DNA of 64,000 nucleotides from an uncultured Gemmatimonadales bacterium (GTDB taxonomy: Bacteria; Gemmatimonadota; Gemmatimonadetes; Longimicrobiales; RSA9): the NCBI GenBank assembly GCA_963741945.1, contig CAVUKA010000003.1, positions 723,998 through 787,997 on the forward strand. Reading direction: 5' to 3'. The notes beneath the pieces were generated by a model. It searched no databases and was not told where the DNA came from. It was given only the letters and a program-made list of their open reading frames with translations. Positions 8,837-39,433 of this stretch are shown piece by piece. Each line of letters opens with the position of its first letter. Positions within the stretch are counted from its first letter, which is position 1. The translations under genes and the position numbers were made by a program.

Positions 8837-8860
8837 GGTCTCTTTCGCGCGGTGCCTGGG

Positions 8861-10153
8861 CTAGACCCAGCCGCGATCCCGGCAGGCCTGGGCCACCCGG
8901 TCCACTGCAATGACGTACGCGGCGTCGCGCGTGAACAGGTTCTGCTGCTTCGCCACTTCGCTCACGGCGACGAACGCGGAGGTCATCTTCACGTCCAGCT
9001 TGCCCAGGACCTCGTCGCGCTCCCAGAAGTAGTTCATGTTGCTCTGCACCTGCTCGAAATAGCTGGTGGTCACGCCGCCGGCATTGGCGAGCAGGTCCGG
9101 GACCAGGAACACCCCGCGCTGGTGCAACACCCGGTCCGCCTCCGGGCTGGTGGGCCCGTTGGCACCCTCGGCGATGATCTTCACCCTCGCCGGAATCCGG
9201 TCCACGTTCTCCGCGTTGATCTGGTTCTCCAGCGCGGCGGGGATCAGGATGTCCACGTCCTGAGCGAGCCAGTCGTCGCCATCCAGGATCTCGTAGCCCA
9301 GCTCTTTCGCCCGCGTCTTGTCGATCCCGCCAAAGCGGTCCGCGATCCCCTGGAGCTCCGCCAGGTCCACACCGCCGGCCCGGCTGAACGCGTAGCTCAC
9401 CTGGTCCGCCTGGTCCCACGAGCTGACGCAGACCACCTTCCCGCCCAGCTGCGTGTACAGCTCGATGGCGTACTGCGCCACGTTGCCGAAGCCCTGCACG
9501 CTCGCCACGGTGCCGCTCGCCTCCATGCCCAGTTCGCGCAGCGCTTCCCGGATCGTGAAGACGACGCCGTACCCCGTCGCCTCCTTCCGCCCCAGGCTGC
9601 CACCGAGCCCCACCGGCTTCCCGGTGATGAATCCCGGCAGGCGCTGCCCGTAAATGGTCTCGAATTCATCGAGCATCCACAGCATGTGCTGCGGCGTGGT
9701 CATGACGTCCGGCGCCGGCACGTCCCGGGTCGGGCCCACGTCTCGCGCGATCTGGCGTACCCAACCGCGCGAGATCTGCTCCTGCTCCCGCAGGCTAAGG
9801 TCGTGCGGATCGCAGATCACGCCGCCCTTGCCACCGCCGAGCGGGATATCCACCACGGCGCACTTCCATGTCATCCACATGCCCAGCGCGCGCACGGTGT
9901 CCAGGCTCTCCTGCGGGTGGAAGCGAATGCCACCCTTGCTCGGACCGCGCGCGTCGTTGTGCTGCACCCGGAAGCCGCGGAACACCCGCACGCTGCCATC
10001 ATCCATCCGAACGGGGATCGCGAAGCTGTATTCCCGCATCGGCCACCGAAGCAGATCGCGCGTGCTCGCCTCCAGCTCCAGCAGGTCCGCGATGCGATCG
10101 AACTGCGCCTGAGCCATCTCGAACGAGTTGTAGGCTCGAGTGCTCTTCTTCAT
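8861..10153 (-). CDS. gdhA: Glu/Leu/Phe/Val dehydrogenase (glutamate dehydrogenase)
   Basis: RVQHNDARGPSKGGIRFHP, MTWKCA, GGGKGG, DVPAPD, ITGKP, ATGYG, QGFGNV, EGANGP, NAGGV. Confidence 0.95.
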   Translation of the reverse strand: MKKSTRAYNSFEMAQAQFDRIADLLELEASTRDLLRWPMREYSFAIPVRMDDGSVRVFRGFRVQHNDARGPSKGGIRFHPQESLDTVRALGMWMTWKCAVVDIPLGGGKGGVICDPHDLSLREQEQISRGWVRQIARDVGPTRDVPAPDVMTTPQHMLWMLDEFETIYGQRLPGFITGKPVGLGGSLGRKEATGYGVVFTIREALRELGMEASGTVASVQGFGNVAQYAIELYTQLGGKVVCVSSWDQADQVSYAFSRAGGVDLAELQGIADRFGGIDKTRAKELGYEILDGDDWLAQDVDILIPAALENQINAENVDRIPARVKIIAEGANGPTSPEADRVLHQRGVFLVPDLLANAGGVTTSYFEQVQSNMNYFWERDEVLGKLDVKMTSAFVAVSEVAKQQNLFTRDAAYVIAVDRVAQACRDRGWV

Positions 10154-10832: not shown

Positions 10833-13541
10833 ATGACAGGCAAACCGATCCTCCATACAACCGGGGCGCTCACGGGCACCCTCGTCCTCACCGCTGCTCT
10901 CGCGGCGGGCGCGGCCGCACAGGGCCGCGTGGTGCCGCCCCCGCCGCCCGGCCGCGATACCGTGGTCGCGGCGCCGGGCCCACGCTACGCGGCGGGGGAG
11001 CTCAGGCGCTTCCTGCTGGGCGACGAGTGGCGAGACCTCTGGCAGGTCCCGCTGACGCTCCCTGTCCTGGACATCGAGACGTTCGCCGGCGGGCTGGAGC
11101 CGGACGAGGAGGGTGGCGGCAACCAGTCCATCACGCTCCACCTGCGCGACGCGCGCGGCCGCGACTGGATCTTCCGCTCCCTCGACAAGTACCCCGGCAA
11201 GAAGCTGGAGGAGGGCGGGCTGCTGGCCTGGATCGCCGCGGACCAGGTGAGCGCACTGCATCCGGCGGGCCAGCTCGTCGTCCCCACGCTGCTCGACGCC
11301 CTCGGGATCCTGCACGTCACGCCCACGCTCTACGTGATGCCGGACGACCCCGCGCTGGGGAAGTTCAGGAGCCAGTTCGCCGGGATGATCGGGGCGCTGG
11401 AGCTCATCCCCAACGAGGGGGCGGATGACTCGCCCGGCTTCGCGGGATCGAAGAAGATCGTGAAGACGGAGACGCTGTTCGATCATCTGGGGGAGACCCC
11501 GCTCAACCGCGTCGACCAGCGCGAGCTGTTCCGGGCGAGGCTGCTCGATTTCATCATCGGGGACACGGATCGCGGCCTGGACCAGTGGCGCTGGGCCAGG
11601 TTCCCGGACCCGCAGCGGGCGGACGGACGCATCTGGCGCCCGATCCCCCGCGACCGGGACTGGGCCTTCGTCTCGGGCGACGGGGTGGCCGGCGCGGGAA
11701 TCGGCCTGTTCTACCCGAAGCACACCGCCTACCGCGCAAGGTATGCGGATCTCCAGGCATACACCTTCACGTCCCACATCCTGGACCGCCGGCTTCTCAC
11801 GTCCATCGATCGCGCGGACGCGGAAGCGGAGATCCAGCGCGTCCGGAGCGCGCTGACGGACTCGGTGATCCGCGCCGCCGTCGGCCATCTACCCCGCCGC
11901 TATCCCGAGTCGCACCGGCAGCGCCTCACGCGGCTGATCGAGAGCCGGCGCGACCGGCTCCCGGGGATCGGGAACGCCTACTACCAGTGGCTGGCCAGCG
12001 CCGTGGACATCCGCGCCACCCAGCAGCCGGACTACGCGCGGGCCGAGCGCCGCGCCGACGGCAGCGTGGATGTCGCTCTCTTCCTCCTCGCCGGAGCCGA
12101 GGACGCCGGTCGCGCCGCCGAGCCGTACTACCGCCGCACCTTCCGGCCATCCGAGACCCACGAGATTCGGATCCACCTCCGAGACGGCGATGACCGCGCC
12201 CTGGTCCGTGGTGCGTCCAACGACGAGATCGCCATCCGCGTCATCGGCGACGCGGGCGACGACGTCCTCGTCGACTCCACCAGCGGCGCCAACGTCCATT
12301 TCTACGACGCCCGCGGGGAAAACCGGTTCATCACGGCGGCCGGGACTTCCGTCAGCACGCGCGCGTGGAACCCACCACCGATCCCGGAAGGCGTTCGCCT
12401 GGGGAGCGACTGGTCCCCCGACTTCGGACAGACGCTCGGCTGGCGACCGGCCGCGGAATACGGCGAGCACGCGGGCGTCGTCGTCGGCTTCGGACCCCGG
12501 TGGACCGGGTACGGCTTCCGTCGCCTGCCGCACGAGTGGCAGGTCGGGGGCACCGCCCTCTTCGCCCTCGGCGCGCTGCGCCCCGGCGCCAGCGCCTTCG
12601 TGGACTGGCGGCCGGAGAACTCCCTCCATTCGCTGCACGCGGACGCCCGATGGAGCACGTTCGACGCGATCCGCTGGTACGGACCCGGGAACAGCTCTCC
12701 GCGCATCGATGACGACCTCTCGCTCGTCCCGCTACGCCGCGCTTCCATCCGCCCCGATCTCATCCTCCGCTTCGGCACCTGGCGCGCCGAGACCAGCCCC
12801 GACTCCCTCGTCATCAACGAGGCCGCGATCAGCGACGAGACACCCTCCGGCTTCCGGACTTCCCTGGCCCTGGGACCGGTGCTCACCTGGACCGATCCCG
12901 CACCACGCACCCCCGCGGACGGCAGCCCCGACGTCATCCCGCCCGGCGCTCCCTCCGACCAGGGACGCGCGCTCGCGGCCGGCACCGTCTTCCAGGCGGG
13001 CGCCGGCGCCCGCTTCGACCTCAGTCAGACCGACCGCGCGGTCGCACCGCGCAGAGGCTATCTCCTCTCCGCTTCCGCCCAGGGGTTCCCCGGCTTCGGC
13101 CGTGGCGATGCCGGCGCCTCCGGCAACGCGGCCGCCGAGATCCGCGCCTACTTCCCGCTCCCCGCCGCCGCCGTGCTCGCCACTCGCATTGGCGCGGCCG
13201 GCGCGTTCGGCGACTTCACCGCCTGGAATGCCGCCACCCTCGGCGGCCGCGCCAACCTGCGTGGCTACCCCTACATGCGGTTCGCCGGTGACGCCGCGGC
13301 CTACGGCAACCTCGAGATCCGCGCCCCCATCGCCTCCGTCCCTCTCATCGTACGAGGAAAACTCGGCCTCCTCGCCCTCGCCGATGCCGGCCGCGTCTGG
13401 TTCCGCGGCCGCTCTCCCGGCGGCTTCCATACCGCCCTCGGCGGCGGCATCTGGTTCGCCGGCGGGGGTGAAGCGGTCTCCCTCTACTACGCCCATGGCG
13501 AGCGCGGCCGCCTCTATCTCTCCTTCGACATGCCCTTCTGA
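10833..13541 (+). CDS. Omp85/BamA-TamA family outer-membrane protein with N-terminal kinase-like region
   Basis: Signal peptide; C-terminal beta-barrel with [15 protein letters not shown] and terminal F; N-terminal [34 protein letters not shown]. Confidence 0.8.
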
Positions 13542-14126: not shown

Positions 14127-15251
14127 GTGGCGGATCCGACGGTGGGCGTGGAAGAGGAGTACCAGCTGGTGGACCCGGCAACCGGGGGCCTGCGCAGCGG
14201 TGCGGTGCATGTTCTTCGCTCGTCGTGGACGGACGACCTGCAGCCGGAGCTGCAGGAGACGATGGTAGAGATCCAGACGCCGCCCTCGACCTCGATGGCG
14301 GAAGTGGCGGAGCACCTGCGCAGGCGGCGGCTCACGGCTTCCGCGAGTGCGGGCGTCGAGGGTTTGGAGATCGTCTCGGCCGGAACGCACCCCTTCAGTG
14401 ACTGGCGGGGCCACGTGGTGGCCGAGGGCGAGCGCGCCGACCTGCTGGTGGCCCGCTTCGGTCGCGTCGCATGGACGGAGCACATCTTCGGGCTGCACGT
14501 CCACGTGGCGCAGCCGGTGGGGCTGGATGCCGCCGTGGTCCTGCGGGAAGCGCGCTGGCTCAGTCCTCTCCTGATCGCGCTGTCGTGCAGCTCGCCGTAC
14601 TACCAGGGACAGGACACGGGGTACGCGTCCTACCGGTCCGTCATCCAGCGTCGCCTCCCGCTCACCGGCCCGCCGCCGGCGACGGAGTCGAAAGCCGCCT
14701 ATGATGCCCTCGTGGACGGTCTCCTGCGCGCGGGCGTGCTCCCGGACACCCACACCGTGTATTGGAACGTCCGGCTGAGCGCCGTGCACCCCACCATCGA
14801 ATTCCGTGGGATGGACGCCTGCCCCCGCGTCGAGGACGCGGTGGCGATCGCGGCACTGGCACGGGGCGCCGTGGCGCACGTGGCGACCGGGGGCACGATA
14901 CGCCCGCCCGGCGGAACGGGCGACCTCGACGACACACTGCTCGGATTGAACGAGTGGCAGGCCGCGCGCTTCGGTCTCGAGGCTCCCCTCGCGCTGCCCG
15001 GCGAGCGCGGCATCCGCGGCGGGTCCATCAGGGAGGAGGCGGACCGCGTCCTGCATCTTCTCCGCCCCTGCCTGGTCCGCCTCGGCGATGGCGATGCAGA
15101 AGCCCTGGTCCACGGAATCCTCGAGCGCGGCACCGCGGCGGACCGGCTCCGCGAGCTGCGCTCCGCTGGCCGCGACATGCGCGGCCTCGTAGACTGGCTG
15201 CGGACGGAAAGCCAGCTCGGTCTGGGCTCCGCATCCGGCGATGCGCCGTGA
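14127..15251 (+). CDS. ybdK: YbdK family carboxylate-amine ligase (GCS2)
   Basis: TVGVEEEYQLVD, AGTHPF, FGLHVHV, SSPY..G.DTGYASYR, TIEFRGMD. Confidence 0.9.
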   Translation: MADPTVGVEEEYQLVDPATGGLRSGAVHVLRSSWTDDLQPELQETMVEIQTPPSTSMAEVAEHLRRRRLTASASAGVEGLEIVSAGTHPFSDWRGHVVAEGERADLLVARFGRVAWTEHIFGLHVHVAQPVGLDAAVVLREARWLSPLLIALSCSSPYYQGQDTGYASYRSVIQRRLPLTGPPPATESKAAYDALVDGLLRAGVLPDTHTVYWNVRLSAVHPTIEFRGMDACPRVEDAVAIAALARGAVAHVATGGTIRPPGGTGDLDDTLLGLNEWQAARFGLEAPLALPGERGIRGGSIREEADRVLHLLRPCLVRLGDGDAEALVHGILERGTAADRLRELRSAGRDMRGLVDWLRTESQLGLGSASGDAP

Positions 15252-15282
15252 ACACGCGCCGAGGCGGCGGGTAAGGCGAGGA

Positions 15283-16380
15283 ATGTCGAGCGAACCGACA
15301 GAGCAGCGCCTGAACGGGGGCGAACGGAAGCGATGGAACTGGCGCAGCCACATCCGTTTCCTGCCACTCCTCTCCCTGGCGCTGGGTATTGGTGTGGCCG
15401 CCGTTGTGGCGGCGCGGGCCGGGGCGAGCGTGGCCGATGTCGCGCGCGCGCTCCCCGCCAACGCACACCTCCTTGCGTTTACCGTGATGGCCGTGGAGCT
15501 GGGAGCGCGCGGCATGCGGTGGGTGCTTCTGGCGCGCGGGGTGGGCGTGCCGCTCCGTTTCCGCACATCGCTGCTGGCGCAGCTCGCCGGCGAAGCAGCG
15601 GGGGCGGTGACACCCTCGCGGATGGGGACGGAGCCCGCGAAGATCGCCATCGTCACGCGGAGCTCCATCACGGTGGCGAGCGCGGGGGCCATCCTGGCGG
15701 GCGAGCTGCTGGCGGAGGCCTCCATGCTCATGGTCACCGTGCTCGCGCTGAGCACGATCGTCCCCGCGGGTGAGCGCCTGCCCGTCCTCGGGGTTCTGGT
15801 GTATGCGACCATGATGGCGTGCGGCGCTCTCAGCGTGGTGGTGCTCGCCCGGGCGCGCCCGAAGCGCACGCCGCCCGGCTGGTGGACGCGGCTGCGTCTG
15901 TCGGAGCGGCAATGGCGGAGGCTGCGCGTCACGTCCCATCACCTGCGCTACCGTGTGAAGCGGCTCCGGCGACTGTCGGGCACGGCCATCGCCAGCGTGC
16001 TCGTCGTGACGGCCATCCACATCGCCGCGCGCCTGTCCGTTCTCCCGGTCATGGCCAGCACCGTGGAGACGCCCACGTCGGTGATCCCGCTGGTGACCTG
16101 GCCCCTCTTCTTCTTCTACGCCGGCACCCTCGTCCCGAGCCCGGGGGGCGGTGGCACCATCGAGCTCGGCTTCGCCCACATGCTGGGCGGGTTCCTCACG
16201 GCTCGATCCATGGCCGGCCTGCTCGTCTGGTGGCGTTTCTACACCTTCTATCTGGGTGCCATGATCGGCGGCATTGCGGTGGCCGTCACCGCGCTGCGGG
16301 GCCGCACCCAGCGCCGCCGGGCTCGCGCGCTGGCCCGCGCGGCCGAGAACGCCGAGGACCCGCCGGCGGAGGCGGCATAG
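15283..16380 (+). CDS. Lysylphosphatidylglycerol synthase TM / flippase-like membrane protein
   Basis: Multiple TM segments; TPSRMGTEP, PSPGGGGTIE, WWRFYTFY. Alternative start at 15241. Confidence 0.8.
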   Translation: MSSEPTEQRLNGGERKRWNWRSHIRFLPLLSLALGIGVAAVVAARAGASVADVARALPANAHLLAFTVMAVELGARGMRWVLLARGVGVPLRFRTSLLAQLAGEAAGAVTPSRMGTEPAKIAIVTRSSITVASAGAILAGELLAEASMLMVTVLALSTIVPAGERLPVLGVLVYATMMACGALSVVVLARARPKRTPPGWWTRLRLSERQWRRLRVTSHHLRYRVKRLRRLSGTAIASVLVVTAIHIAARLSVLPVMASTVETPTSVIPLVTWPLFFFYAGTLVPSPGGGGTIELGFAHMLGGFLTARSMAGLLVWWRFYTFYLGAMIGGIAVAVTALRGRTQRRRARALARAAENAEDPPAEAA

Positions 16381-24446: not shown

Positions 24447-26333
24447 CTACTCCGCCGGTCTCACGAGGCGGATGAACGCCGGATCGGAGTGCAGGGGATG
24501 GAAGATCCAGTCGCGGGCGGCTACGTCGCGCCAGGAGGGATACTCCTCCAGGTAGCGCCGCAGGAGATCGAGCGCTCTCGGCAGGTCGCCGAGCTCGACC
24601 GCGATCTGCGCCTCATCGTAGCCCCACAGCGCGGCGGGCTCCTCGCCGAGGGCCCTGTGGACGATGGACCACGCGCTGTCCGCCAGCCCCGCCCGCGCGG
24701 CCGTTTTCGCCACCTGTAGCGCGCCGAAGAGGCGGAAGTCGCTCTGCCTGCCCGCGCTGGCGGAGACGACGAGCGTGTCCACGAGGCTCCAGGCCCGGTC
24801 CACGTCCGGCTCCACCTGCGGGAACGTACCGAGCACCATCAACTCCAGCTGGAGCAGGCTCGCGTCTTCGGGATAGCGGGCGCGCCCCTCGACTACCTGC
24901 TTCACGACGGCGTCGTCGGGGCCGAACTGCATGGTGCTGTAGGCTGCCGCGAAGAGCGCCGCGGGCTCCCGCTCCAGGAACTGATCGGCCTCGATGGCGT
25001 GCTGCGCCGCCAGACGCGCTTCCTCGAACCGTGCCTGATTCGTGAGCATGACGCTGAGCTCGCTCCACGCCGCGGCGCGGTCCGGATCGATTTCCACGGC
25101 CCGCCGGAGGTCGCTCTCGGCCAGGGCCTGCATGGCGGACAGGTCGCCCGACAGCGCAGGTGCGGATCGGGCACGGACGATGCCACGCAGCTCCAGCGCC
25201 CGCGCGGAGTCGGTGCCGAGGGCGACCGCGCGTTCCGCGTGCTCCAGCGCGCGCCGGCACCAGGCGGAGTCCGGCACGGTGGCGGAGCCGGTCGCCACGG
25301 CCATGGCCCTCGCCACGCCGCCGCGCCGGAGCGGCGGCTCGATCCACTGGGGGTCCAGCCGCTCCGCCCTTGCCAGGAGGGAATCCTCACGCAGCAGGAC
25401 CGCCCGGGCCGCCGCCACACTCTCGGTCCGGAGCGTGTCGTAGTCGGCCTGCAGCCGTCCGGCCCGGGCGACGAGTGCCCACGCCTCGTCGCTCTGGTTC
25501 CCCTGCCGCTGGCGGCGGAGCTGCAGCTCGCCACCCAGCACCTTGCGGAGCGCCCGGGCCACGCCCCCGACCAGGCTGTCCTGGAGCGCGATCCACTCGC
25601 CCACCGGCGCATCCACGTACTCGCTGTGAACGTGGCTCAGGTCGCTGCCGCGGATGAGCTGGAAAGTGACCCGGATGTCGCCGCCGGGCCCCGGCGCCAC
25701 GCTCCCTTCCACGATGCTGCCGGCCCGAAGCGCGGTCACCATCTGGTCGATGTCCACCTTCTGACCCCGGTACGGCTTCACGCCGTTGCGCGAGATCACG
25801 TCCAGCGAGCGCACCTGCCCCAGCTGGTGGATGAGCGCTTCCGTCAGCGCGTCGGCCAGGAACGCGGAGTGGCCGTCCTGCGTGTAGTCGTCGAAGTAGA
25901 GGACGGCCACGCGCGCGGGGTCCAGCGGCTGCGGGTCACCGATGCCCGCCTCGGTCGCCGTCGTCTCACGCACGCCCCAGAAATGCCAGCCGGAGACACC
26001 CATCCCGACACTCAACAGCACCACGAACAGGACGAGGACGATCCGCCCGCCCCCGCCCAGGAACTCGCTCAGTCGCTTTCCCGTCTCCGCGCGCACCCCG
26101 CCACCCGTGAACTGGAGCGCCCAGGCCAGGACCACCGCGATCGGGAAGCCCGCCGCGCCCACGATGATCGCCAGGTCGAGGAGCCAGAAAGGGTAGCCCA
26201 GGGCGGAAACGATGATCGTGTCCACGAACTGGACCACCGCGTACGCGGCCACGAGGTACAGGATCGCGGCCCGGGAAACGCGGCGTCGTCGCAGCTCCTG
26301 AAGGAACGACCGGAGGCGTGATCCGATCGGCAT
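24447..26333 (-). CDS. Membrane protein with TolB_N-like domain and TPR repeats
   Basis: ELRRRRVSR N-terminus with 3 TM helices; VAVLYF...LDVISRNGV...IVEGSV; helical TPR region; C-terminal FHPLHSDPAF. Confidence 0.8.
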   Translation of the reverse strand: MPIGSRLRSFLQELRRRRVSRAAILYLVAAYAVVQFVDTIIVSALGYPFWLLDLAIIVGAAGFPIAVVLAWALQFTGGGVRAETGKRLSEFLGGGGRIVLVLFVVLLSVGMGVSGWHFWGVRETTATEAGIGDPQPLDPARVAVLYFDDYTQDGHSAFLADALTEALIHQLGQVRSLDVISRNGVKPYRGQKVDIDQMVTALRAGSIVEGSVAPGPGGDIRVTFQLIRGSDLSHVHSEYVDAPVGEWIALQDSLVGGVARALRKVLGGELQLRRQRQGNQSDEAWALVARAGRLQADYDTLRTESVAAARAVLLREDSLLARAERLDPQWIEPPLRRGGVARAMAVATGSATVPDSAWCRRALEHAERAVALGTDSARALELRGIVRARSAPALSGDLSAMQALAESDLRRAVEIDPDRAAAWSELSVMLTNQARFEEARLAAQHAIEADQFLEREPAALFAAAYSTMQFGPDDAVVKQVVEGRARYPEDASLLQLELMVLGTFPQVEPDVDRAWSLVDTLVVSASAGRQSDFRLFGALQVAKTAARAGLADSAWSIVHRALGEEPAALWGYDEAQIAVELGDLPRALDLLRRYLEEYPSWRDVAARDWIFHPLHSDPAFIRLVRPAE

Positions 26334-26635
26334 GGGGCTCTTCTGCGGGTTGGGGGCAAGCCGTGCGGTGTACTGTTTCACTATGCCAGACGGCGGCGGC
26401 GCGGACAAGAGTGGTGATCGCGCCGAGTTCGCCGGGTCATGGCCATCGGGAGCCACCACCGTGCACCTGCGGGGGCACACGGATCGACTGCGAAGACCGG
26501 TCCACCCCCGCCCCCCCTTTCCCCGCCCCGCCCCCGCCCGCATCATCCGGGGCGCCCCGCTCGCCAGTCAGAGCCGTGAATCAGTCGGGGAACGACCCCG
26601 CACAGGGGCGGGGCCCATGGAGCGCATGACGCAGA

Positions 26636-28762
26636 ATGCCTGAACACGATGACCGATACGGGGCCATCCGCCCGCCCGAAGAGCTGAATCCGAGGCGGGA
26701 GGCGGCCCTCGATTTTGCCGACCGCCCGCTGAAGGAGATGACGGCTGCGGATTACGACGCCATCGGCTTCCTCTCGGGGCTCGAGGTGCACCAGCAGCTC
26801 CGCACGCCATCGAAGCTGTTCTGCCGCTGCCCCGCGGGCCGACGGGCGGACCGTGCGGACGCCGAAGTGCTGCGGCACATGCGCCCCACGCTCAGCGAGC
26901 TGGGTGAGTACGACGGCACCGCGCTGATGGAGTTCAAGACGCGCAAGGAGATCGTCTACCTCCTGGAGCGGGGCACGGTCTGTACGTACGAGATGGACGA
27001 CACGCCGCCGTTCCCCGTCGATGACGACGCGGTCCGCATCGCCGTCGAGCTGGCGCTGCTCTTCGACCTGAAGCTCGTTTCGGAGCTCCACGTCATGCGC
27101 AAGCAGTATCTGGACGGCTCGATCCCCACCGGGTTCCAGCGCACGGCCATGGTGGGCGTGGGCGGGAGCATCCCGTTCCGGGTCCCGGAGCTCGGTGTGG
27201 ACCGGCCGCTCTCCATCCGGCAGCTGTCGCTGGAGGAGGACTCCTGCCGCGAGGTCAGCGACCTCGGCCACCGCATCGTCTTCCGCGCCGACCGGCTGGG
27301 GGTCCCGCTCACCGAAGTGGTGACGGAGCCCGAGCTGCGGACGCCATGGGAGCTGCAGGCCGCCGCGCGTCTCATTGCCCGGACGGCGCGCGCCACCGGG
27401 CACGTGCGCCGCGGCGCCGGCGCGGCCCGCCAGGACGTGAATGTGTCGGTAGCGGGCGGGCGTCGCGTCGAGATCAAGGGCGTGCCCCGCCATCGCGGTC
27501 TGCCGCTGCTGGTTCACATCGAGGCGTTCCGTCAGCTGGCGCTCCTGCGGGTGAAGGCGGAGCTGGAGCGCCGGGGCGTCACCCTGGACCTGCTCCCGCT
27601 CCCGGGGCAGGCCCCGGCGTGGGAAGCGTCGAAGCTGGTCGTGGACGCGTCGTCGATCCTCGCACGCACGGGCCACGCACCCCTCCGCCGCGCGCTGGAG
27701 CGGGGCGACACTGCCGTCGCCGTCCGGCTCCCGGGCTTCGCCGGCCTCCTCGACCGTCCTGCGCAGCCGGGAATCCCGTTCGGCCACGAGCTGGCCGAGC
27801 GCGTGCGCGTCATCGCCTGCCCGATCGAACGCCCGTTCACGACCTGGGCGAACGTCGGCGCCGGCGCGGCACCGGTGACGGCGGGATCGGACGCGGGCGG
27901 CCGCGTCCGCGCGCACCCGGGCGCCGCCGACCTGTCGCGGGCGCACTGGCGGGCGATCGAGCAGGCGCTCGGCGCCGAGGGGGGCGACGCCATGATCGTC
28001 GCCTGGGCCCCGGCCGCCGACGCGGACACCGCCGCCCGGGAGATCCTGATCCGCGCCCGCGAAGCGCTGGCGGGCGTGCCCGCGGAAACGCGCCAGGCGC
28101 GGGCGGACGGGACCACGGGCTTCGAGCGCATCCTCCCCGGCGCCGACCGGATGTACCCCGACACGGACACGCCACCGCTCCCCATCGCGGATGCGCTGAT
28201 CGAGCGGGTGGTCGCCGAACTGCCGGAGACCCCATGGGCGCGGGCGGACCGCTACACCGGCCTCGGCCTCGACGTGCGGGAGGCGCAGCGCCTGTCGGCG
28301 GCGCCGTGGGCCGACCTCTTCGACGATGTCGCCCCGGAGGCAGGCGACGTCGCCCGCACCCTCGCCCGCGCACTCCAGCACCGGCTCCCCTTCCACGCCC
28401 GCCGCAGCGGGGCGGCCCCGCCCTCACCCGAGCGCCTGCGTCCGCTCGTCCGGGCACTGGAGGACGGGGACCTGCTTCCGGCCGCCATGGAGCCCGCCCT
28501 GGACGCGCTGGTCACCGGCCCGGAAGTCGCCGCCGCGGAGATCGTTGCCCGCTTCCGCGCTTCGCCGGAAGCCGCGACAGACGTGGAGACCAGGATCCCG
28601 GATGCCGCGGCGCGGGCGCGCAACCTGGGTCCGGCTGAGCCGGCGGCGGCAGTGCGGCGGGCGATGGGGGAGGTCATGCGGGGGTATCACGGGCGAGTGG
28701 ACGCCGCGGACGTGCGGCGCCGCGTCGTCGCCGCGCTGGGGTTCGAAGTGGAGGCAGCGTGA
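26636..28762 (+). CDS. gatE: Glu-tRNA(Gln) amidotransferase subunit E
   Basis: GLEVHQQL..KLFCRC, RPTLSELGEYD, CTYEMDDTPP, MRKQYLDGSIPTGFQRT, LEEDSCR, DRLGVPLTE, RQDVNVS, RVEIKGV, AspRS-like insertion, GVPAETR, PGADRMYPDTD. Confidence 0.93.
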   Translation: MPEHDDRYGAIRPPEELNPRREAALDFADRPLKEMTAADYDAIGFLSGLEVHQQLRTPSKLFCRCPAGRRADRADAEVLRHMRPTLSELGEYDGTALMEFKTRKEIVYLLERGTVCTYEMDDTPPFPVDDDAVRIAVELALLFDLKLVSELHVMRKQYLDGSIPTGFQRTAMVGVGGSIPFRVPELGVDRPLSIRQLSLEEDSCREVSDLGHRIVFRADRLGVPLTEVVTEPELRTPWELQAAARLIARTARATGHVRRGAGAARQDVNVSVAGGRRVEIKGVPRHRGLPLLVHIEAFRQLALLRVKAELERRGVTLDLLPLPGQAPAWEASKLVVDASSILARTGHAPLRRALERGDTAVAVRLPGFAGLLDRPAQPGIPFGHELAERVRVIACPIERPFTTWANVGAGAAPVTAGSDAGGRVRAHPGAADLSRAHWRAIEQALGAEGGDAMIVAWAPAADADTAAREILIRAREALAGVPAETRQARADGTTGFERILPGADRMYPDTDTPPLPIADALIERVVAELPETPWARADRYTGLGLDVREAQRLSAAPWADLFDDVAPEAGDVARTLARALQHRLPFHARRSGAAPPSPERLRPLVRALEDGDLLPAAMEPALDALVTGPEVAAAEIVARFRASPEAATDVETRIPDAAARARNLGPAEPAAAVRRAMGEVMRGYHGRVDAADVRRRVVAALGFEVEAA

Positions 28763-28838
28763 TGGCCGGGGAGACGCTAGGGGAGGTCGGCCGTGCGGGT
28801 CGGCGGCGGGGCCGGCGGCGGCAGAGGGAGGAGCCGGC

Positions 28839-30218
28839 GTGAAGCGCGGTGGCTATCGGGGGCCGGCATGGGAGGTCATGCAGCGTTTCGGCATCACGGC
28901 GTGGTGCGAAGTGCGGGCGACGACCACGCGGGGCGCCTTCATCGGCCTGGTCCTGCCGCGCTCCGAAACCAGCGATGACCTGCACCTGGTCCTGAAGCTC
29001 GGCTCCGGGTACAACGTGGGCCTCCGTCACGACACCCTGCTCGATCTCGAGAAGATCGGCTACCGGGAAGCGCACTACCGGATCCCGGAGAAGGCGTTCC
29101 CCGTCACGCCCGACCTCCCGCGCGTCAAGCTGCTGGGGACGGGCGGGACGATCGCCTCGCGGCTGGACTACCGCACCGGCGCCGTGATCCCGGCGTTCAC
29201 GCCGGGCGAGCTGTACGGCTCCGTCCCGGAGCTGGCGGACGTGTGCAACCTGGAGACGGAGAAGCTGTTCGGCGTGTTCTCGGAGAACATGGGCCCCGAG
29301 CAGTACATCGTGATGGCCGAGAAGATCGGCGAGGCCATCCGCGACGGTTACGAGGGCGTGATGGTCGGCCACGGCACGGACACCATGCACCACACCGCCG
29401 CCGTGCTCAGCTTCATGGTGCAGGACCCGCCGGTCCCCGTGGTCCTGGTGGGGAGCCAGCGCTCGTCGGACCGGCCATCGTCGGACGCAGCCCGCAACCT
29501 CATCAACGCCGCCTGGGCCGCCGGGCACGGACCGATCGCGGAGGTCATGATCTGCATGTTCGGACCGACGTCGGACGTGTACAACCTGCTCCACCGCGGC
29601 ACACGCGTCCGCAAGATGCACAGCTCCGTGCGCAGCACGTTCCGCACGCTGGGCGACATCCCGCTGGCCATGGTGGAGCACGGCTCCCTCACGCCGTTGA
29701 AGGACGACTGGAAGCCCCGCCGCGACGACCGCGACGTGACCATTCTCGCCGCGTTCGATTCCCGGGTCACCCTGGTCTACTACTATCCCGGGATGCAGCC
29801 GGACATCATCGATGCCCTCGTGGAGCGCGGCTACCGCGGGATCGTGCTGGCGGGCACGGGGCTCGGCCACGTCAATCGCCTGATCTACCCCGCGCTGGAG
29901 CGCGCCCGCGACGCCGGCGTCCAGGTCTACATGACGCTTCAGACGCTCTGGGGCTTCGTCCAGATGCACGTCTACGAGACCGGCCGCGAGATCCTGGAGC
30001 TGGGCGTGGTGCCCCTCGCCAACATGCTCCCGGAAGTGGCGTACGTGAAGCTCGGCTGGGCGCTCGGTCTCCACCCGGACGATCCGGACGCGGTGCGCGA
30101 CCTGATGACCACCACGCTCGCCGGCGAGATGACCGAGCGCGAGCCCCACGACGGCTATCTCATCCTCCAGGGCGGTGTGCCCGAGGTACAGGAAGCGCTC
30201 GCGGGCATATGGCGGTGA
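28839..30218 (+). CDS. gatD: Glu-tRNA(Gln) amidotransferase subunit D
   Basis: GatD-type N-terminal domain (LVLKLGSGYNVG); GTGGTIASRLDYRTGAV, HGTDTM, GSQRSSDRPSSD, GTRVRKMHSS, GTGLGH, MLPEVAYVKL. GTG start after GGAG. Confidence 0.93.
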   Translation: MKRGGYRGPAWEVMQRFGITAWCEVRATTTRGAFIGLVLPRSETSDDLHLVLKLGSGYNVGLRHDTLLDLEKIGYREAHYRIPEKAFPVTPDLPRVKLLGTGGTIASRLDYRTGAVIPAFTPGELYGSVPELADVCNLETEKLFGVFSENMGPEQYIVMAEKIGEAIRDGYEGVMVGHGTDTMHHTAAVLSFMVQDPPVPVVLVGSQRSSDRPSSDAARNLINAAWAAGHGPIAEVMICMFGPTSDVYNLLHRGTRVRKMHSSVRSTFRTLGDIPLAMVEHGSLTPLKDDWKPRRDDRDVTILAAFDSRVTLVYYYPGMQPDIIDALVERGYRGIVLAGTGLGHVNRLIYPALERARDAGVQVYMTLQTLWGFVQMHVYETGREILELGVVPLANMLPEVAYVKLGWALGLHPDDPDAVRDLMTTTLAGEMTEREPHDGYLILQGGVPEVQEALAGIWR

Positions 30219-30317
30219 CTCCCCGCCTGATTCCGCGGCGGCGGCCCGGTAGTCAATGGGCCGCCCCCGGGCTACCTTTCGGGCTGCTCCATGGCCTGCA
30301 ATGACGACGATGCCTCG

Positions 30318-32915
30318 ATGACGAATAGATGCCGCCGGTCGCTCGGGCGCCTCGCGACGTTCGCTGCGCTCCTCTCCTTCGCCGCGTGCGGCGCCCCGGT
30401 GAGTCCTGCGCCCCGCGCTGCGCGGCCGGAAACGGCGCCGCAGGCCGCGGGCGGCGCGGCGGAGGCCGCGGCCTGGGACACCGTCACCCGGACGCTGCCC
30501 ACCGGCGTAACGCTGGATCCGGCCGGCCAGCTGGTGGAGATGGGGTCGTTCCCGCTGGCGTTCGTGCTGGCGCCGGACCCGCGCTACGCCGTCGCCATCC
30601 TGAGCGGCTGGCGTCGTCAGGGACTGGACGTGGTGGACCGGGCGGCCGGCCGCGTGGTGCAGCGCGTGTCCCAGCCGGCCGCGTTCCTGGGTCTGACCTT
30701 CTCGCCCGATGGCCGGACGGTCTACGCCTCGGGCGGCAACCAGGACGTGGTCTACCGGTACGACTGGGGCCCCGAGCTGTTGACGTTCCGGGACAGCATC
30801 CCGCTGGCGCCGCCGAACCGTGCGACGGGGCACGTGCCGGGCGAGCCGATGATGGAGAGCGGAGCGCAGCAGGTGGGTCAGCGCTTCCCGGCCGGCCTGG
30901 CGCTGTCGCCCGATGGACACCGCCTCTACGTCGCGGAGAACCTGGGCGATGCGCTGGCCGTGCTGGACGTGGACAGCGGACGGGTGGTGCAGCGGCTCCC
31001 CGCCGGGCGGTATCCGTACGAAGTGGTGGTGGCCCCGGACGGGACCGTCTACGTATCGGCATGGTCCCAGGCCACGGTATCGGTGTTCCGCCCGGAAGGT
31101 GGCGGGCTCGCGCCCGATGGCACCATGGTGGTGGGACGCCATCCCTCGGCCATGGCCTTGAGCCGCGACGGCAGCCGCCTGTTCGTGGCATCGGCGAGCA
31201 CGGACCGGGTGGTGGTGGTGAACACCCGCGAGCGGCGCGTGATCACGGAGCTCTTCGACCGTGCGCCCCACGGCCCCGGTGAGGGGAGCACCCCGAACGC
31301 GCTGGCGCTGTCCCGCGACGGGCGCCGGCTCTTCGTCGCCGAAGCGGACAACAACGCCATCGCGGTATTCGACCTCTCGCCGCGCACGGCCGGGCTGGCC
31401 GCGGGCACCGGGGAGGACCGGCTGGCGGGGAGGATCCCCGTGGACTGGTACCCCACCGACGTCCTCGTGCGGGGCGACACGCTCCTGGCGCTCTCCGGCA
31501 AGGGACTCGGCACGGGGCCGAACCCCGGGCTGCCGCAGCCGGGGCAGCGGGGAACGCGCCGCACGGTCGAGGAGAGCTATACGCTCGGGCAGCTCAATGG
31601 CACCATTCGCTCGATCCCCGGTGGGACGACGCTGCGCGGCCAGGGGCTGGAACGGATGACGCAGCGGGTGGTGGCCGCGAACCACTGGACGCTCCCCCGT
31701 CGGGCGGCCGCGGAGGTCTACCCGCCGTTCGAGCACGTCATCTACGTCATCAAGGAGAACCGGACGTACGACCAGGTGTTCGGGGACATGAGCCCGGGGG
31801 ATGGCGACTCGACGCTCACGCTCTTCCCACGCCACGTCTCGCCCAACCACCACGCCCTGGCCGACCGCTTCGGACTGTTCGACCGCTTCTTCGTGAATGC
31901 CGAGGTGAGTGCCGACGGCCACAACTGGTCGACCGCCGCCTACGCCACCGACTACGTGGAGAAGACGGTCCCGTCCAACTACGCGGGGCTCCGGCCGAGC
32001 TACGACTACGAGGGCTCGAACCGCGGCTGGGGGAACATCCCCCAGGAGGGCGAGGACGTGGCCGAGCCGGCGAACGGCTACATCTGGGACCTGGCCCACC
32101 GCGCGGGCATCTCGTTCCGCAATTACGGCGAGTTCGTGATCCCCGGGGCGGTGGACCCCGACGACCCCATGCCGGAAGGGTACCGGGGCGTGAAGCCGTT
32201 CCTGGCGGTGCACACCAACCCGGACTTCCCCGGCTTCGACCTCGAGATCCCCGACCGCGAACGCGCCGACATCTTCCTTCAGGACTTCCGCGAGTTCGAG
32301 CGCAGGGGCGCGATGCCGCAGCTCATGATCCTGCGACTCCCCAACGACCACACCGCCGGCGGCCGCGCCGGCGCGCCCACGCCCCGGGCCTACATGGCCG
32401 ACAACGACCTCGCCCTCGGCCGCATTGTCGAGGCGGTCTCACGCTCCTCGTTCTGGAAGAACACGGTCTTCTTCGTACTGGAGGACGACGCCCAGAACGG
32501 GCCGGACCACGTGGACTCGCACCGCTCCCCGCTGCTCGTGATCTCGGCGTACAACCGGCCTGGCGTCAGCCACCGGTTCGCCAACACCACGGACGTCATC
32601 GCCACCATGTCCGACATCCTCGGGCTCGGCAGCCTCTCGCAGTTCGACCACTATGGCCGGCCTCTCCGCGAGATCTTCGCCCGCGAGCCCGACCTGGCGC
32701 CGTACCAGGTGCGGGTCCCGGCCGTGGACATGAACGAGCGCAACGGCGTCGACAACCCGGGCGCCCATGCCTCCATGGGCCTCGACCTGCGCTTCGAGGA
32801 CAGCGTCGACGACATCCTCTTCAACCGCATCCTGTGGGCTGTCGTCAAAGGGGCAGACGTCCCCTACCCCGGGCGGACGCGGATGCCCGTGCTCGAGTGG
32901 CAGCGATCCCGCTGA
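30318..32915 (+). CDS. Secreted YVTN/YncE beta-propeller plus phosphoesterase (alkaline phosphatase superfamily) lipoprotein
   Basis: Lipobox FAAC; repeated LSPDGxRLYV blades; HVIYVIKENRTYDQVFGD, SADGHNWS, LPNDHT, EDDAQNGPDHVDSHRS. Confidence 0.88.
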   Translation: MTNRCRRSLGRLATFAALLSFAACGAPVSPAPRAARPETAPQAAGGAAEAAAWDTVTRTLPTGVTLDPAGQLVEMGSFPLAFVLAPDPRYAVAILSGWRRQGLDVVDRAAGRVVQRVSQPAAFLGLTFSPDGRTVYASGGNQDVVYRYDWGPELLTFRDSIPLAPPNRATGHVPGEPMMESGAQQVGQRFPAGLALSPDGHRLYVAENLGDALAVLDVDSGRVVQRLPAGRYPYEVVVAPDGTVYVSAWSQATVSVFRPEGGGLAPDGTMVVGRHPSAMALSRDGSRLFVASASTDRVVVVNTRERRVITELFDRAPHGPGEGSTPNALALSRDGRRLFVAEADNNAIAVFDLSPRTAGLAAGTGEDRLAGRIPVDWYPTDVLVRGDTLLALSGKGLGTGPNPGLPQPGQRGTRRTVEESYTLGQLNGTIRSIPGGTTLRGQGLERMTQRVVAANHWTLPRRAAAEVYPPFEHVIYVIKENRTYDQVFGDMSPGDGDSTLTLFPRHVSPNHHALADRFGLFDRFFVNAEVSADGHNWSTAAYATDYVEKTVPSNYAGLRPSYDYEGSNRGWGNIPQEGEDVAEPANGYIWDLAHRAGISFRNYGEFVIPGAVDPDDPMPEGYRGVKPFLAVHTNPDFPGFDLEIPDRERADIFLQDFREFERRGAMPQLMILRLPNDHTAGGRAGAPTPRAYMADNDLALGRIVEAVSRSSFWKNTVFFVLEDDAQNGPDHVDSHRSPLLVISAYNRPGVSHRFANTTDVIATMSDILGLGSLSQFDHYGRPLREIFAREPDLAPYQVRVPAVDMNERNGVDNPGAHASMGLDLRFEDSVDDILFNRILWAVVKGADVPYPGRTRMPVLEWQRSR

Positions 32916-36926: not shown

Positions 36927-38057
36927 TCAGCCGGTGCTCACGTGCACGACCACACTCATCCCCGGACGCAGCGGCCGATCGGCGCCGCACCCCTCCGTCA
37001 CTTCGATCCGGACGGGCACCCGCTGCACCACTTTCGTGAAGTTGCCGGTGGCGTTTTCCGGCGGGATCAGCGAGAACTGCGACCCCGTCGCCCCGCTGAT
37101 GCTCTCCACCTGCCCCCGCGCGCTGCACCCGCCGTACGCGTCCACGCTCAGCTCCGCCGCCTCGCCCGGCCGGATTCGGTCCAGCTGCGTCTCCTTGAAG
37201 TTGGCCGTCACCGTGATCCCCGAGTCGGCGACGATGGTCATCACCGGCTGACCCGGCTGCAGCAGCTGGCCGGGCTCCGCCGAGCGCTTCGCCACGAGCC
37301 CGCTCACGGGCGCAGTGATCCGCGCATAGGAGAGCTGGAGCTTCGCGGTCTCCACCGCGGCCTGCGCAGCCTTCAGGTGCGCTTCCGCCTGTCGCACGCC
37401 CGCCTGCGCCGTGTGCACGCCCGCCTGCGCCGCCAGCCGCTGCTGCTCCACCGAGCGGAGCGTGGCCCGCGCCGCCTCCGCGGCCGCTTCCGCCGCGTCC
37501 AGCTGCTGCTGCGACACGATCTGCTTCGCCGCCAGACCCCGCACCCGCTCCAGGTCACGGTCCGCCTTCGATGCCGACGCCCTCGCCGCCGCGATCTGCG
37601 CGGCCAGTGCCCCGCCATGGCGCTGCGCCTGCTCCACCTGCGCCTCCGCCTGGCCCTGCACGCCACCACCGCCCACGGCCGCCTGCGCCGACGCCAGCTC
37701 CGCTTCCGCCTGGTCCAGCCGCTGGCGCAGCTCGACATCGTCGACCACCACCAGCGCCTGACCCTCGGATACGTGCTCGTTCTCCTCCACGGAGACCGCC
37801 TTCACGTACCCGCCCACCTTCGCCACCACCGGCACCAGGTGGCCGGCCACGTACGCGTCATCCGTGGATTCATGCGACGACGCGTAGCGCCATCGCATCA
37901 CGCCCCAGATCGCCACCGCCACCAGCAGCACCGCCGCCACCGGAAGCACCCACCGGCGCTGCCCGCTGCGGGGCGCCCCACCCGCCGGTGGTTCCTGCCT
38001 GCCGTCCGCCATTGCCTCGCTCCTCTCGCGTCGATCGTCCGTCGGTCCGTTCGCCAT
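36927..38057 (-). CDS. HlyD/EmrA family membrane fusion protein
   Basis: STDDAYV, ANFKETQL, PPENATGNFTKVVQRVPV, LRPGMS. Confidence 0.93.
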   Translation of the reverse strand: MANGPTDDRRERSEAMADGRQEPPAGGAPRSGQRRWVLPVAAVLLVAVAIWGVMRWRYASSHESTDDAYVAGHLVPVVAKVGGYVKAVSVEENEHVSEGQALVVVDDVELRQRLDQAEAELASAQAAVGGGGVQGQAEAQVEQAQRHGGALAAQIAAARASASKADRDLERVRGLAAKQIVSQQQLDAAEAAAEAARATLRSVEQQRLAAQAGVHTAQAGVRQAEAHLKAAQAAVETAKLQLSYARITAPVSGLVAKRSAEPGQLLQPGQPVMTIVADSGITVTANFKETQLDRIRPGEAAELSVDAYGGCSARGQVESISGATGSQFSLIPPENATGNFTKVVQRVPVRIEVTEGCGADRPLRPGMSVVVHVSTG

Positions 38058-39433
38058 CAGCGCAGCTCACCCGCAGTGCCCTCGGCGGCCGCCAGTGCGA
38101 CGCGCGCACCCTGGTAGCCGGCGAGCGCGTCCACGTACGCGCCGCGGGCGTCGCTCAGCCGCAGCGCCGATTCCGTCACGTCCGCACTCCCGGCCACGCC
38201 CGCTTCGAATCGCTCCTGCGACTGCTGGTATTCCTCCTGCGCCAGCGCCAGCCTCGCCCGCGCCGCCAGCACCTGCTCCGAAGACGCCGACAGGTCCAGG
38301 ACCGCCGAGCGCACCTGCATCGCCACCTGCTCACGCAGCTCGTGACGCTGCGCTTCCAGCATGGATACCTGCGCCTGCTCCTCGTCCACCCGCGCGCCCA
38401 GGCGAAGACCGGTGAACGCCGGCAGAGACACGCGCACCGCCCAGTCGTACGTGTTCAGCAGGTGCGCGTTCTCACGGCCGATCCAGCCGTCATCCGCGCC
38501 CAGCGTCAGTTTCGGCAACCGCTCCGCTTTCACCGCCGACACGGCGTGCGAGGCCGCCCGGATCCGCTCGTCCAGCGCCACCACGTCGCTCCGGCCCGCC
38601 AGCGCTGCAGCCACCGCAGCGTCCATATCCGCTTCGAGGGGAGCGCCCGCAGCCAGCGTGTCGGTCAGCACCACCGCGTGGTCGAGCGGCAGGTCCAGCG
38701 CGCGCAGCAGCGCCAGCTTGGTCTGCCGCACCTGGTTCTCCGCGCCGATTCGCCTGGCCTGCATGGCCGCCAGCTGCGCTTCCGCACGCGTGACATCCAG
38801 CTTCACGCCCACGCCCGCCTCCAGCAGGTCCCTGGCCGTGCGCACCAGGTCCTCCGCCAGCGACACGTCCTCCCGCACCGCCGCGAGCCGCGACTCCGCC
38901 CAGAGCCCCCGCACGTATGCCCTTCCCGCTCCGGCGGCCAGCGCTTCCCGGGTCGCGGCCGTCCCGCTGCGCGAGGCGTCCAGCGCCGATCTGGCCGAGC
39001 GCACCCGCTCCACCGCGCTCCAGTCGAACAGCGTCTGCGATAGACTGGCTCGCACGTCCGGCGTCCCGATGGGACCCACCACTTCGCCATTCGGGTTGAA
39101 CAGCGGCGGCTCGCCGGGGGCCGTCGGGAAGTCCAGGCCGAACGTGGCCGTGTTGAACGTCCGCTGCCCCTGCTGCGCCATCACGTTGATCTGCGGCAGG
39201 AGCGCGGAGCGCGCCTGTGTCACACGCGCCGCGGCCTGTACATCGCCGAGCTGCGCCACGTCCAGCCGCGCCCCGCGCTCCGTGGCCAGCCGCACGGCCT
39301 CCCCCAGATCCAGCCGCAGCGTGTCCGGCGCCGTCATTGCACCGCCACCCGGCTCCTGGGCCGGCGCCGCGCCCGCCACCGCCAGCGCGAGCACCACCGC
39401 GCCCGCCCCCTTCACTCCCATCCTCCGCCTCAC
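38057..39433 (-). CDS. TolC family outer-membrane efflux protein
   Basis: Signal peptide, ARSALLPQI, ERLPKLTL, repeated helical halves; translationally coupled to its neighbours. Confidence 0.9.
   Translation of the reverse strand: MRRRMGVKGAGAVVLALAVAGAAPAQEPGGGAMTAPDTLRLDLGEAVRLATERGARLDVAQLGDVQAAARVTQARSALLPQINVMAQQGQRTFNTATFGLDFPTAPGEPPLFNPNGEVVGPIGTPDVRASLSQTLFDWSAVERVRSARSALDASRSGTAATREALAAGAGRAYVRGLWAESRLAAVREDVSLAEDLVRTARDLLEAGVGVKLDVTRAEAQLAAMQARRIGAENQVRQTKLALLRALDLPLDHAVVLTDTLAAGAPLEADMDAAVAAALAGRSDVVALDERIRAASHAVSAVKAERLPKLTLGADDGWIGRENAHLLNTYDWAVRVSLPAFTGLRLGARVDEEQAQVSMLEAQRHELREQVAMQVRSAVLDLSASSEQVLAARARLALAQEEYQQSQERFEAGVAGSADVTESALRLSDARGAYVDALAGYQGARVALAAAEGTAGELR

Follow-up and report, generated by a model that had tools for sequence, protein, structure and literature searches.

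The 64,000-nucleotide stretch analyzed here (the window; G000:C3:723998-787997) comes from an uncultured Gemmatimonadales bacterium whose genome spans 4.09 Mb in 8 contigs (70% GC; 96.7% completeness, 2.2% contamination). Two adjacent open frames on the plus strand together fill window positions 26636-30218 and are assigned to gatE and gatD, the genes of the tRNA-dependent amidotransferase GatDE, which reviews call archaea-only and which counts as an archaeal signature, as in a 2008 review (PMC2330236, excerpt). The pair is laid out as follows.

26636-28762, plus strand: gatE, the tRNA-dependent kinase/amidase subunit, 708 aa; about 35 aa of N-terminal extension precede the cradle domain, and the AspRS-like insertion domain (about 316-470, divergent here) is joined by a helical and YqeY-like tail

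28763-28838, plus strand: gatE-gatD spacer, 76 nt, with a Shine-Dalgarno-like GGGAGGAG at 28826-28833

28839-30218, plus strand: gatD, the asparaginase-type glutaminase subunit, 459 aa from GTG 28839

The most likely start of gatD is GTG 28839. This codon is probably the start because it is the first one past the gatE stop, has GGGAGGAG 5 nt upstream, and yields N-terminal residues alignable to relatives and to 2D6F. An alternative start at ATG 28878 would give 446 aa, and a start at 28326, the 5' limit of the gatD open frame (28326-30218), was rejected because it would overlap gatE. A scan of 26300-30500 for promoter-like and terminator-like consensus sites returned 0 and 0 against 0.2 and 0.5 expected, and such a scan is uninformative at 72% GC.

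Profile models separate both proteins from their paralogs. GatE reaches 464.8 bits with NF003107, above the cut-off of 456, and 396.3 with TIGR00134, above 319.55, against at most 134.5 bits on GatB models with cut-offs of at least 314.8 (134.5 versus 338 for the best of them). GatD scores 482.5 bits on TIGR02153 (cut-off 324). It also passes the type I asparaginase subfamily model (361.3; cut-off 260.5), below its GatD equivalog score, and reaches 132.3 on the equivalog asparaginase model NF006998, where the cut-off is 376. Pfam reports GatB_N in GatE, and Asparaginase, Asparaginase_C, and GatD_N (36.6 bits) in GatD. The best solved structures for GatE are 1zq1_C (298.5 bits) and 2d6f_C (282.3), with GatB chains at 71.4 or less; those for GatD are 1zq1_A (382.4 bits) and 2d6f_A (374.3), with plain asparaginases at 150.9 or less.

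Every motif named in the earlier note on this DNA is present. GatE carries GLEVHQQL at residue 48, LEEDSCR at 199, GVPLTEV at 222, and RQDVNVS at 265, while GatD, numbered from the GTG, carries GTGGTIASR at 100, HGTDTM at 178, and RKMH at 258. Within the GatD motifs, T101 and T104 (GTGGT), T180-D181 (HGTDT), and K259 (RKMH) align to 1zq1_A and 2d6f_A; their catalytic roles are those that we take to follow from E. coli asparaginase numbering. The Mg/kinase-site residues of Methanothermobacter thermautotrophicus GatE are His15, Glu157, and Glu184 (PMC2330236, excerpt). H52, E200, and E227 of the window GatE align to these three and are invariant in 54/54 bacterial and 62/62 archaeal rows (116/116). 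Across the protein, the bacterial and archaeal GatE sets share the same residue at 86 alignment columns, with conservation of at least 90%. The GatE tail aligns as well, with residues 442-694 matching 368-620 of 1zq1_C, a GatB model covering 504-701, and the MG..M motif kept; Pfam GatB_Yqey is not reported for the window GatE, yet is precomputed for close relatives. By profile, structure match, and motif, the gene pair is a true GatDE, neither GatB nor AnsA, and its biochemical class is secure; in the profile comparison that the earlier note proposed, the GatDE equivalogs win.

The insertion domain of GatE is present and alignable to the archaeal structure (query 316-391 and 434-470), with one departure. 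Its H-(S/T)-D motif reads W404-A405-N406 in the window protein, where bacterial rows have H, S or T, and D in 45, 50, and 45 of 54 cases and archaeal rows in 62, 61, and 62 of 62. The domain also holds an extra insert of about 21 residues, and the orthologue in the same-genus genome G001 diverges likewise. Against that orthologue, the ratio of nonsynonymous to synonymous substitution (dN/dS) is 0.17 for gatE overall (core 0.064, motif region 0.34, tail 0.21) and 0.077 for gatD, values which indicate that both genes are under purifying selection. The earlier description of the pair as intact and without lesions stands for two full-length, adjacent genes, with a caveat at the insertion-domain motif.

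The gene pair sits natively in a bacterial chromosome and is no chimeric archaeal insert, as native composition and synteny with a same-genus genome show. The GC content of gatE and gatD is 0.718-0.724 against 0.682-0.747 across the window, and their GC at third codon positions (GC3) is 0.90-0.91 against 0.85-0.96 in the other open frames passing the composition filter; the pair is indeed as GC-rich as its neighbors. The locus, upstream gene included, is shared with G001, and gatED lies on the same 892-kb contig as the host gatA and gatB. Short contigs of 381-699 bases from one DNA data set, many of them derived from relatives, do not span gatED and its neighbors and so carry no information on contiguity.

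The pair is no single odd bacterial case but belongs to a large family. A scan of one genome per prokaryote species gives at least 599 pattern matches in species-representative genomes, 583 of them confirmed as relatives. The best 80 of the at least 599 matches all carry bacterial labels, namely Gemmatimonadota, Ignavibacteriota/Bacteroidota, Planctomycetota, Myxococcota, Eisenbacteria, Aminicenantes, Cloacimonetes, Krumholzibacteriota, and Aegiribacteria; these names were given by the depositors, in some cases evidently by automatic means. A second scan, with the clade-specific peptides RHMRPTLSE and YD[GD]TALME, likewise gives at least 599 matches, and those listed add Coatesbacteria, WOR-3, Zixibacteria, Calditrichota, and others. 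A clustered library yields 579 representatives at E <=1e-30, and 69 other bacterial GatD proteins share 63-93% identity with that of the window. Closer to home the distribution is thin. GatDE exceeds the cut-off in a minority of relatives within the window lineage (5/41) and has a match in 14/201 genomes and 11/98 genera of an even sample of its own phylum. The tallies over relatives (GatDE, GluRS, the discriminating Arg column, and tRNA-Gln) include four genomes flagged as unpublished (G016, G017, G020, and G026), none with GatDE; without them 5/41 becomes 5/37, and no conclusion depends on them.

Judging from these matches, the window gatED is one member of a large, widespread, and distinct bacterial GatDE clade. 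This clade is apparently undescribed in the literature, though automatically annotated in databases. As the earlier note suspected, homologues are already named: in a collection of 5.8 billion proteins, close relatives appear as 'Glu-tRNA(Gln) amidotransferase subunit GatE [Gemmatimonadota bacterium]' or similar. Literature searches, whose coverage leaves out most subscription journals, found no paper on bacterial GatDE. Three records labeled Thermoplasmatales/Thermoplasmatota (L203, L206, and L270) hold a bacterial-clade gatE, and in two of them gatD lies upstream in the opposite orientation; this could stem from mis-binning or from a return transfer to archaea. Two copies look broken, a gatE split over two frames (G010:C19:10890-12333, the same genome as L057) and a gatD with a frame change near the N-terminal domain (L038:8000-9429), and either may reflect decay or an assembly indel.

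Trees set the bacterial clade apart from archaeal GatDE, for which 80 archaeal loci were taken for comparison. In a FastTree analysis of 117 GatE rows rooted on the GatB of the window genome, 54 bacterial rows (support 99) and 62 archaeal rows (support 98) fall on either side of the root. Adding 71 unlabeled cluster representatives fills in both stems and the split holds, with 55 rows (support 98) against 68 (support 83). A short IQ-TREE search under a mixture model, with 54 rows and no outgroup, gives the split an SH-aLRT of 100, and the GatD tree repeats it (70 versus 51 rows, support 100). The archaeal-side sequences nearest the bacterial clade are labeled Heimdallarchaeota, Thorarchaeota, and Odinarchaeota, and one basal representative on the bacterial side is labeled candidate-division CSSED10-310 bacterium. 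The GatB outgroup sits on a long branch that may be drawn to the longest internal branch, which makes the root provisional. In these trees the bacterial clade is distinct and Asgard sequences are its nearest archaeal neighbors; its origin may be an ancient transfer or an ancient bacterial lineage. The old transfer proposed earlier is possible, but a clean Bacteria/Archaea split with Asgard-labeled nearest sequences fixes neither direction nor age.

Gene order follows the same division. The order gatE-gatD is found in 71/80 close bacterial loci, the other 9 being cut by contig ends or lacking a called open frame, and in 23 of 42 more divergent bacterial-clade loci, where gatE stands alone in 14 and other arrangements occur in 5. 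Archaeal loci have gatD-gatE in 59/80 and gatE alone in 20, with the reverse order in none, in line with the earlier note. Compared with the archaeal enzymes of M. thermautotrophicus (2D6F) and Pyrococcus abyssi (1ZQ1), the window pair has the same two subunits and domain set, shares the Mg/kinase H, E, and E and the GatD Thr, Thr-Asp, and Lys motifs, and is about 40% (GatE) and 37-48% (GatD) identical to archaeal proteins. It differs in its separate position in both trees, in its gene order, in clade-specific peptides such as RHMRPTLSE, YDGTALMEF, and RKQYLDGSIPTGFQRT, and in its bacterial host, which has GlnRS, a tRNA(Gln) with U1-A72 rather than A1-U72, and bacterial-type GluRS (the only type sought) rather than the archaeal-type non-discriminating GluRS (ND-GluRS).

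The tRNA-charging genes of the host were surveyed by profile. GlnRS scores 680 bits (TIGR00440; G000:C6:220992-223253) and lies on another contig than gatED. GatA (562.4 bits) and GatB (506.9 bits) are encoded by an adjacent gatB-gatA pair at C3:213266-216087, and AsnRS (488.9 bits) is accompanied by one bacterial-type AspRS. Two bacterial-type GluRS are present (522.9 and 458.8 bits; C7:32106-33695 and C8:161842-163251). The profile search finds neither AsnA nor AsnB over cut-off in the window genome, where tRNA-bound synthesis through GatCAB is the probable source of asparagine, as it is in Thermus and Deinococcus. The 1011-aa open frame of the host GlnRS also encodes a YqeY/GatB-tail domain at the C-terminus, as in Deinococcus GlnRS, and loci L049 and L053 have a GlnRS-YqeY fusion immediately upstream of gatE.

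All three host tRNA(Gln) genes have U1-A72 and A73, so that the survey of the 1-72 pair called for earlier returns the bacterial form. They are without the extra D-loop base present in the host tRNA(Glu) genes, a base that is an antideterminant for both amidotransferases (PMC2330236, excerpt). A GatDE-specific tRNA(Gln) was considered and rejected, the CUG isoacceptor (the one compared) having U1-A72 and A73 in GatDE-bearing and GatDE-less family members alike. GluRS1 is followed by tRNA-Gln(CUG) on the same strand, and this gltX-tRNA(Gln) adjacency recurs in relatives with or without GatDE (e.g., G005, G013, G018, G011, and G019). In loci L341, L346, and L355 (G029, G033, and G035), from the same order and without GatDE, tRNA-Gln(CUG) has the archaeal-type pair A1-U72, against U1-A72 in the window family, and likewise A73. 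ARAGORN also calls unusually long tRNA genes of 95-101 nt in the window genome (Arg-ACG, four Thr-GGT, and Pro-CGG; e.g., C1:1139126-1139220, C1:1163709-1163803, C5:363416-363516, C6:36589-36685, and C5:451004-451098), which coexist with normal copies and a tRNA-SeC and may be false calls or tRNA-like elements.

Other carriers were counted in 50 genomes drawn from the 80 close loci, after 30 loci, mostly on short or truncated contigs, had been left out; these are metagenome-assembled genomes (MAGs) without completeness figures, and absences in them are soft. GatB exceeds its cut-off in 26/50 and AsnB in 39/50. AsnB is present in 20/23 carriers without a GatB match, and GatB in 7 of the 10 that are AsnB-less. 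Replacement of GatCAB by GatDE is not supported, since GatB loss tracks AsnB presence. Three carriers (G077, G084, and G088) have none of GatB, AsnB, and AsnA over cut-off, the record of G088 being one chromosome of 3.87 Mb. One or more bacterial-type GluRS are found in 48/50 carriers, with two matches in about 14. A GatDE-specific second GluRS was rejected too, two GluRS being as common in GatDE-less relatives.

Discrimination by GluRS was predicted from a single alignment column, fixed through R350 of E. coli 8I9I, which we take to be equivalent to Arg358 of the Thermus thermophilus enzyme. Changing Arg358 to Gln makes T. thermophilus GluRS non-discriminating (PMC2978374, excerpt). Arg occupies the column in 55 of the 58 GluRS rows that cover it, the exceptions being GluRS2 of the window genome, which has His, and the enzymes of G089 and G069, where Arg is missing. 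G089 is GlnRS-less, and its lack of Arg serves as a supporting control for the predictor.

Genomic linkage relates the pair to tRNA(Gln) charging. Of the 80 close bacterial loci, 10 have glnS within 6 kb of gatED; they come from several phyla and show at least four arrangements. The order gatE-gatD-glnS occurs in six Gemmatimonadota loci, and five of these have gltX upstream as well, on the opposite strand. A Planctomycetota locus and one from a 'delta proteobacterium' read glnS(YqeY)-gatE-gatD, and two more show other arrangements. In L040, gatE, gatD, and glnS overlap stop-to-start. The linkage is found in 0/42 of the further, more divergent loci. A GS-like gene follows gatD in L045, such a neighbor being clear in 1 locus and weak in 2, and no neighbor besides glnS, gltX, and the GS-like gene recurs across lineages in the bacterial loci examined. 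The idea that the linked 'GlnRS' is a disguised GluRS was rejected: equivalents of E. coli R30, Y211, H215, S227, C229, F233, and Q255 are kept and invariant in 8/8. The glnS/gltX linkage appears to keep GatDE in tRNA(Gln) metabolism. Binding of archaeal GatDE to the archaeal-type ND-GluRS needs no tRNA and probably involves an insertion-domain pocket (PMC2943598, excerpt), and GlnRS descends from the archaeal/eukaryal-type GluRS (PMC2978374, excerpt), which makes a GlnRS-GatDE partnership conceivable by analogy. A complex prediction of the L040 GatE cradle and insertion (45-510) with the linked GlnRS (20-553), run without controls, gave no verdict (score 0.00).

The neighbors of the pair are unrelated bacterial genes, including a serine dehydratase, a hybrid histidine kinase, and an MFS/HlyD/OEP efflux set. 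Three give context to the pair.

24447-26546, minus strand: divergent upstream gene, 699 aa, no Pfam family, coding-like GC3, outside the system

30291-32915, plus strand: downstream gene with beta-propeller (SGL/lactonase) and phosphoesterase domains

38057-39433: TolC-like OEP protein (Pfam)

The 5' part of the upstream gene is syntenic with G001 (window 26011-26365, 72% nucleotide identity). The diderm neighbors described earlier are borne out by the TolC-like protein, but Omp85 and MltD are not among the 36 open frames scanned with Pfam. Elsewhere in the window, a 902-aa open frame at 10833-13541 (plus strand) has coding-like GC3 and no Pfam family, a tandem pair of PPDK_N-domain proteins adjoins a Glu/Leu/Phe/Val dehydrogenase at 4250-10153 (minus strand), and a GCS2 glutamate-cysteine ligase-like gene lies with an MprF-like LPG_synthase_TM gene at 14127-16380.

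With moderate confidence, we read gatE-gatD as a two-gene operon for a working Glu-tRNA(Gln) amidotransferase that would serve as a second or repair route beside GlnRS. The enzyme would be a GatDE heterodimer, probably alpha2-beta2, of the distinct bacterial clade. By the mechanism of the archaeal enzyme, GatD would hydrolyze Gln or Asn to ammonia with a Thr nucleophile and a Thr-Lys-Asp triad. On the same archaeal model, GatE would bind the mischarged tRNA by its acceptor stem and D-loop, phosphorylate the side-chain carboxyl with ATP/Mg (H52, E200, and E227), and amidate it with the channeled ammonia. The most likely substrate would be Glu-tRNA(Gln), the enzyme having adapted to bacterial U1-A72, and in the window genome the mischarged tRNA could come from GluRS2, with its His in place of the discriminating Arg.

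Several observations weigh against that reading. The setting in which the literature defines GatDE, an archaeal host without GlnRS, with an ND-GluRS and an A1-U72 tRNA(Gln), is not that of the window genome. With GlnRS, GatA, GatB, AsnRS, and two GluRS at hand, this genome shows no visible need for GatDE, which is therefore not required for decoding there. GlnRS is also over cut-off in 47/50 other GatDE-bearing genomes, so that the pair is not needed as the bacterial Gln-tRNA route suggested in the earlier note; AsnRS is over cut-off in 48/50 (49/51 with the window genome). The second GluRS is not specific to GatDE, occurring in about 14/50 carriers and commonly in GatDE-less relatives. The main result on this side concerns discrimination. 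The GluRS of 20/20 GatDE-bearing, GatB-less genomes has Arg at the discriminating position, so that Glu-tRNA(Gln) is not predicted to form there, and by this one GluRS determinant most carriers should not make Glu-tRNA(Gln). The tRNA is a further obstacle. The archaeal enzyme requires A1-U72 and acts poorly on bacterial Glu-tRNA(Gln) (PMC2330236 and PMC2943598, excerpts), the host tRNA(Gln) is U1-A72, and GatDE-bearing relatives do not differ from GatDE-less ones in tRNA(Gln)(CUG), with no co-adapted tRNA seen. Finally, the window GatE and its G001 orthologue are without the conserved H-(S/T)-D motif.

Two alternatives keep the enzyme and change its partner or substrate. The clade might have taken on Asp-tRNA(Asn), beside or in place of Glu-tRNA(Gln), and would then, like bacterial GatCAB, serve tRNA-dependent asparagine synthesis. 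Since host tRNA(Asn) and tRNA(Gln) are alike, both with U1-A72 and without the extra D-loop base, a re-tuned enzyme could take both. The three carriers (of 50) with neither GatB, AsnB, nor AsnA would suit this alternative, as would the non-discriminating/archaeal-type AspRS of G077, the only one found there (380 bits against a cut-off of 368.4), and the lack of AsnA and AsnB in the window genome. We nevertheless consider it unlikely. GatCAB and AsnB explain Asn without GatDE in most carriers (20/23 and 7/10, as above), the window genome has GatCAB for the purpose, and the absences come from MAGs and are uncertain; moreover, the GatE insertion domain has been modeled to exclude ND-AspRS (PMC2943598, excerpt), and the recurrent neighbors are glnS and gltX, not aspS or asnS. 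Equally improbable in our estimate is a GatDE re-wired to work with GlnRS instead of a non-discriminating GluRS, or on another substrate, for instance by docking on GlnRS to bind tRNA(Gln), or by offering a conditional route. GatDE and GlnRS do occur together in 47/50 genomes and in gatE-gatD-glnS operons with overlapping codons, the linked enzyme keeps the Gln pocket of a true GlnRS in 8/8, the tRNA-free binding of archaeal ND-GluRS to GatDE offers a precedent (PMC2943598, excerpt), and the carrier GluRS, predicted to be discriminating, leaves no obvious canonical substrate. But GlnRS is normal in these phyla and its co-occurrence may mean nothing, glnS is linked in just 10/80 close and 0/42 further loci and stands on another contig in the window genome, and the full conservation of the kinase and glutaminase sites favors catalysis over a scaffold.

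That the pair is a redundant relic being lost, or an assembly or binning artefact with archaeal DNA, is highly improbable and already largely refuted by selection and synteny. Its patchy distribution (5/41 relatives; 14/201 in the phylum sample), the broken-looking gatE of G010 and gatD of L038, and the conserved motif lost in the window GatE would fit such an account. Yet dN/dS is 0.08-0.17, composition is native, synteny holds in a sister species, the 892-kb contig is shared with gatA and gatB, gene order and signature peptides mark a clade specific to bacteria, and the assemblies behind the broken copies may contain indel errors. A bolder account, which we regard as possible though doubtful, would make bacterial GatDE a deep separate branch, either a survivor from before LUCA (the last ancestor common to all life) or an ancient Asgard-like gift, re-tuned to U1-A72, departing from the archaeal way of working, and partnering GlnRS or amidating, for example, Asp-tRNA(Asn) where the GluRS of the cell is discriminating. 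Sheppard and Soll reportedly inferred a pre-LUCA GatDE. The functional reading of the earlier note is supported in part. For the role of bacterial GatDE our best guess is Glu-tRNA(Gln) amidation, as a second or repair route, at a little above an even chance; Asp-tRNA(Asn) activity and a GlnRS-coupled or other role are the competing readings.

Known systems offer partial parallels. Bacterial GatCAB, also encoded in the window genome, performs the same chemistry, its GatB is a paralogue of GatE, and both enzymes read the first base pair and the D-loop; in the window pair, however, the glutaminase is an asparaginase homologue and not the amidase GatA, there is no GatC, and GatE has an insertion domain. 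Type I asparaginase (AnsA) differs from the window GatD, which has a GatD_N domain and an adjacent gatE. The Helicobacter pylori and Acidithiobacillus type of arrangement, a GluRS2 working with an amidotransferase, resembles the window genome in its second GluRS without the discriminating Arg. Those organisms are without GlnRS, whereas the window genome has GlnRS and its second GluRS is not tied to GatDE. Thermus, Deinococcus, and Bdellovibrio keep GatCAB beside GlnRS and AsnRS for tRNA-dependent Asn synthesis (PMC4206432, excerpt). There, as here, an amidotransferase unneeded for decoding persists beside the direct synthetases, but it is the sole Asn route in those bacteria, while AsnB or GatCAB covers Asn in 47/50 GatDE carriers.

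Arguments on the origin of Gln-tRNA synthesis, and on the absence of GlnRS from archaea, lean on an archaea-only GatDE. A large bacterial clade with its own gene order and signature, with GlnRS co-occurrence and with Asgard neighbors, changes the data behind these origin scenarios. It poses the question of what a conserved amidotransferase does in cells with GlnRS, AsnRS, and an apparently discriminating GluRS, and of how GatE switched from A1-U72 to U1-A72. If bacterial GatDE were indeed a re-tuned deep branch, the statements that 'GatDE is an archaeal signature' and that 'GatDE needs an ND-GluRS' would both fall.

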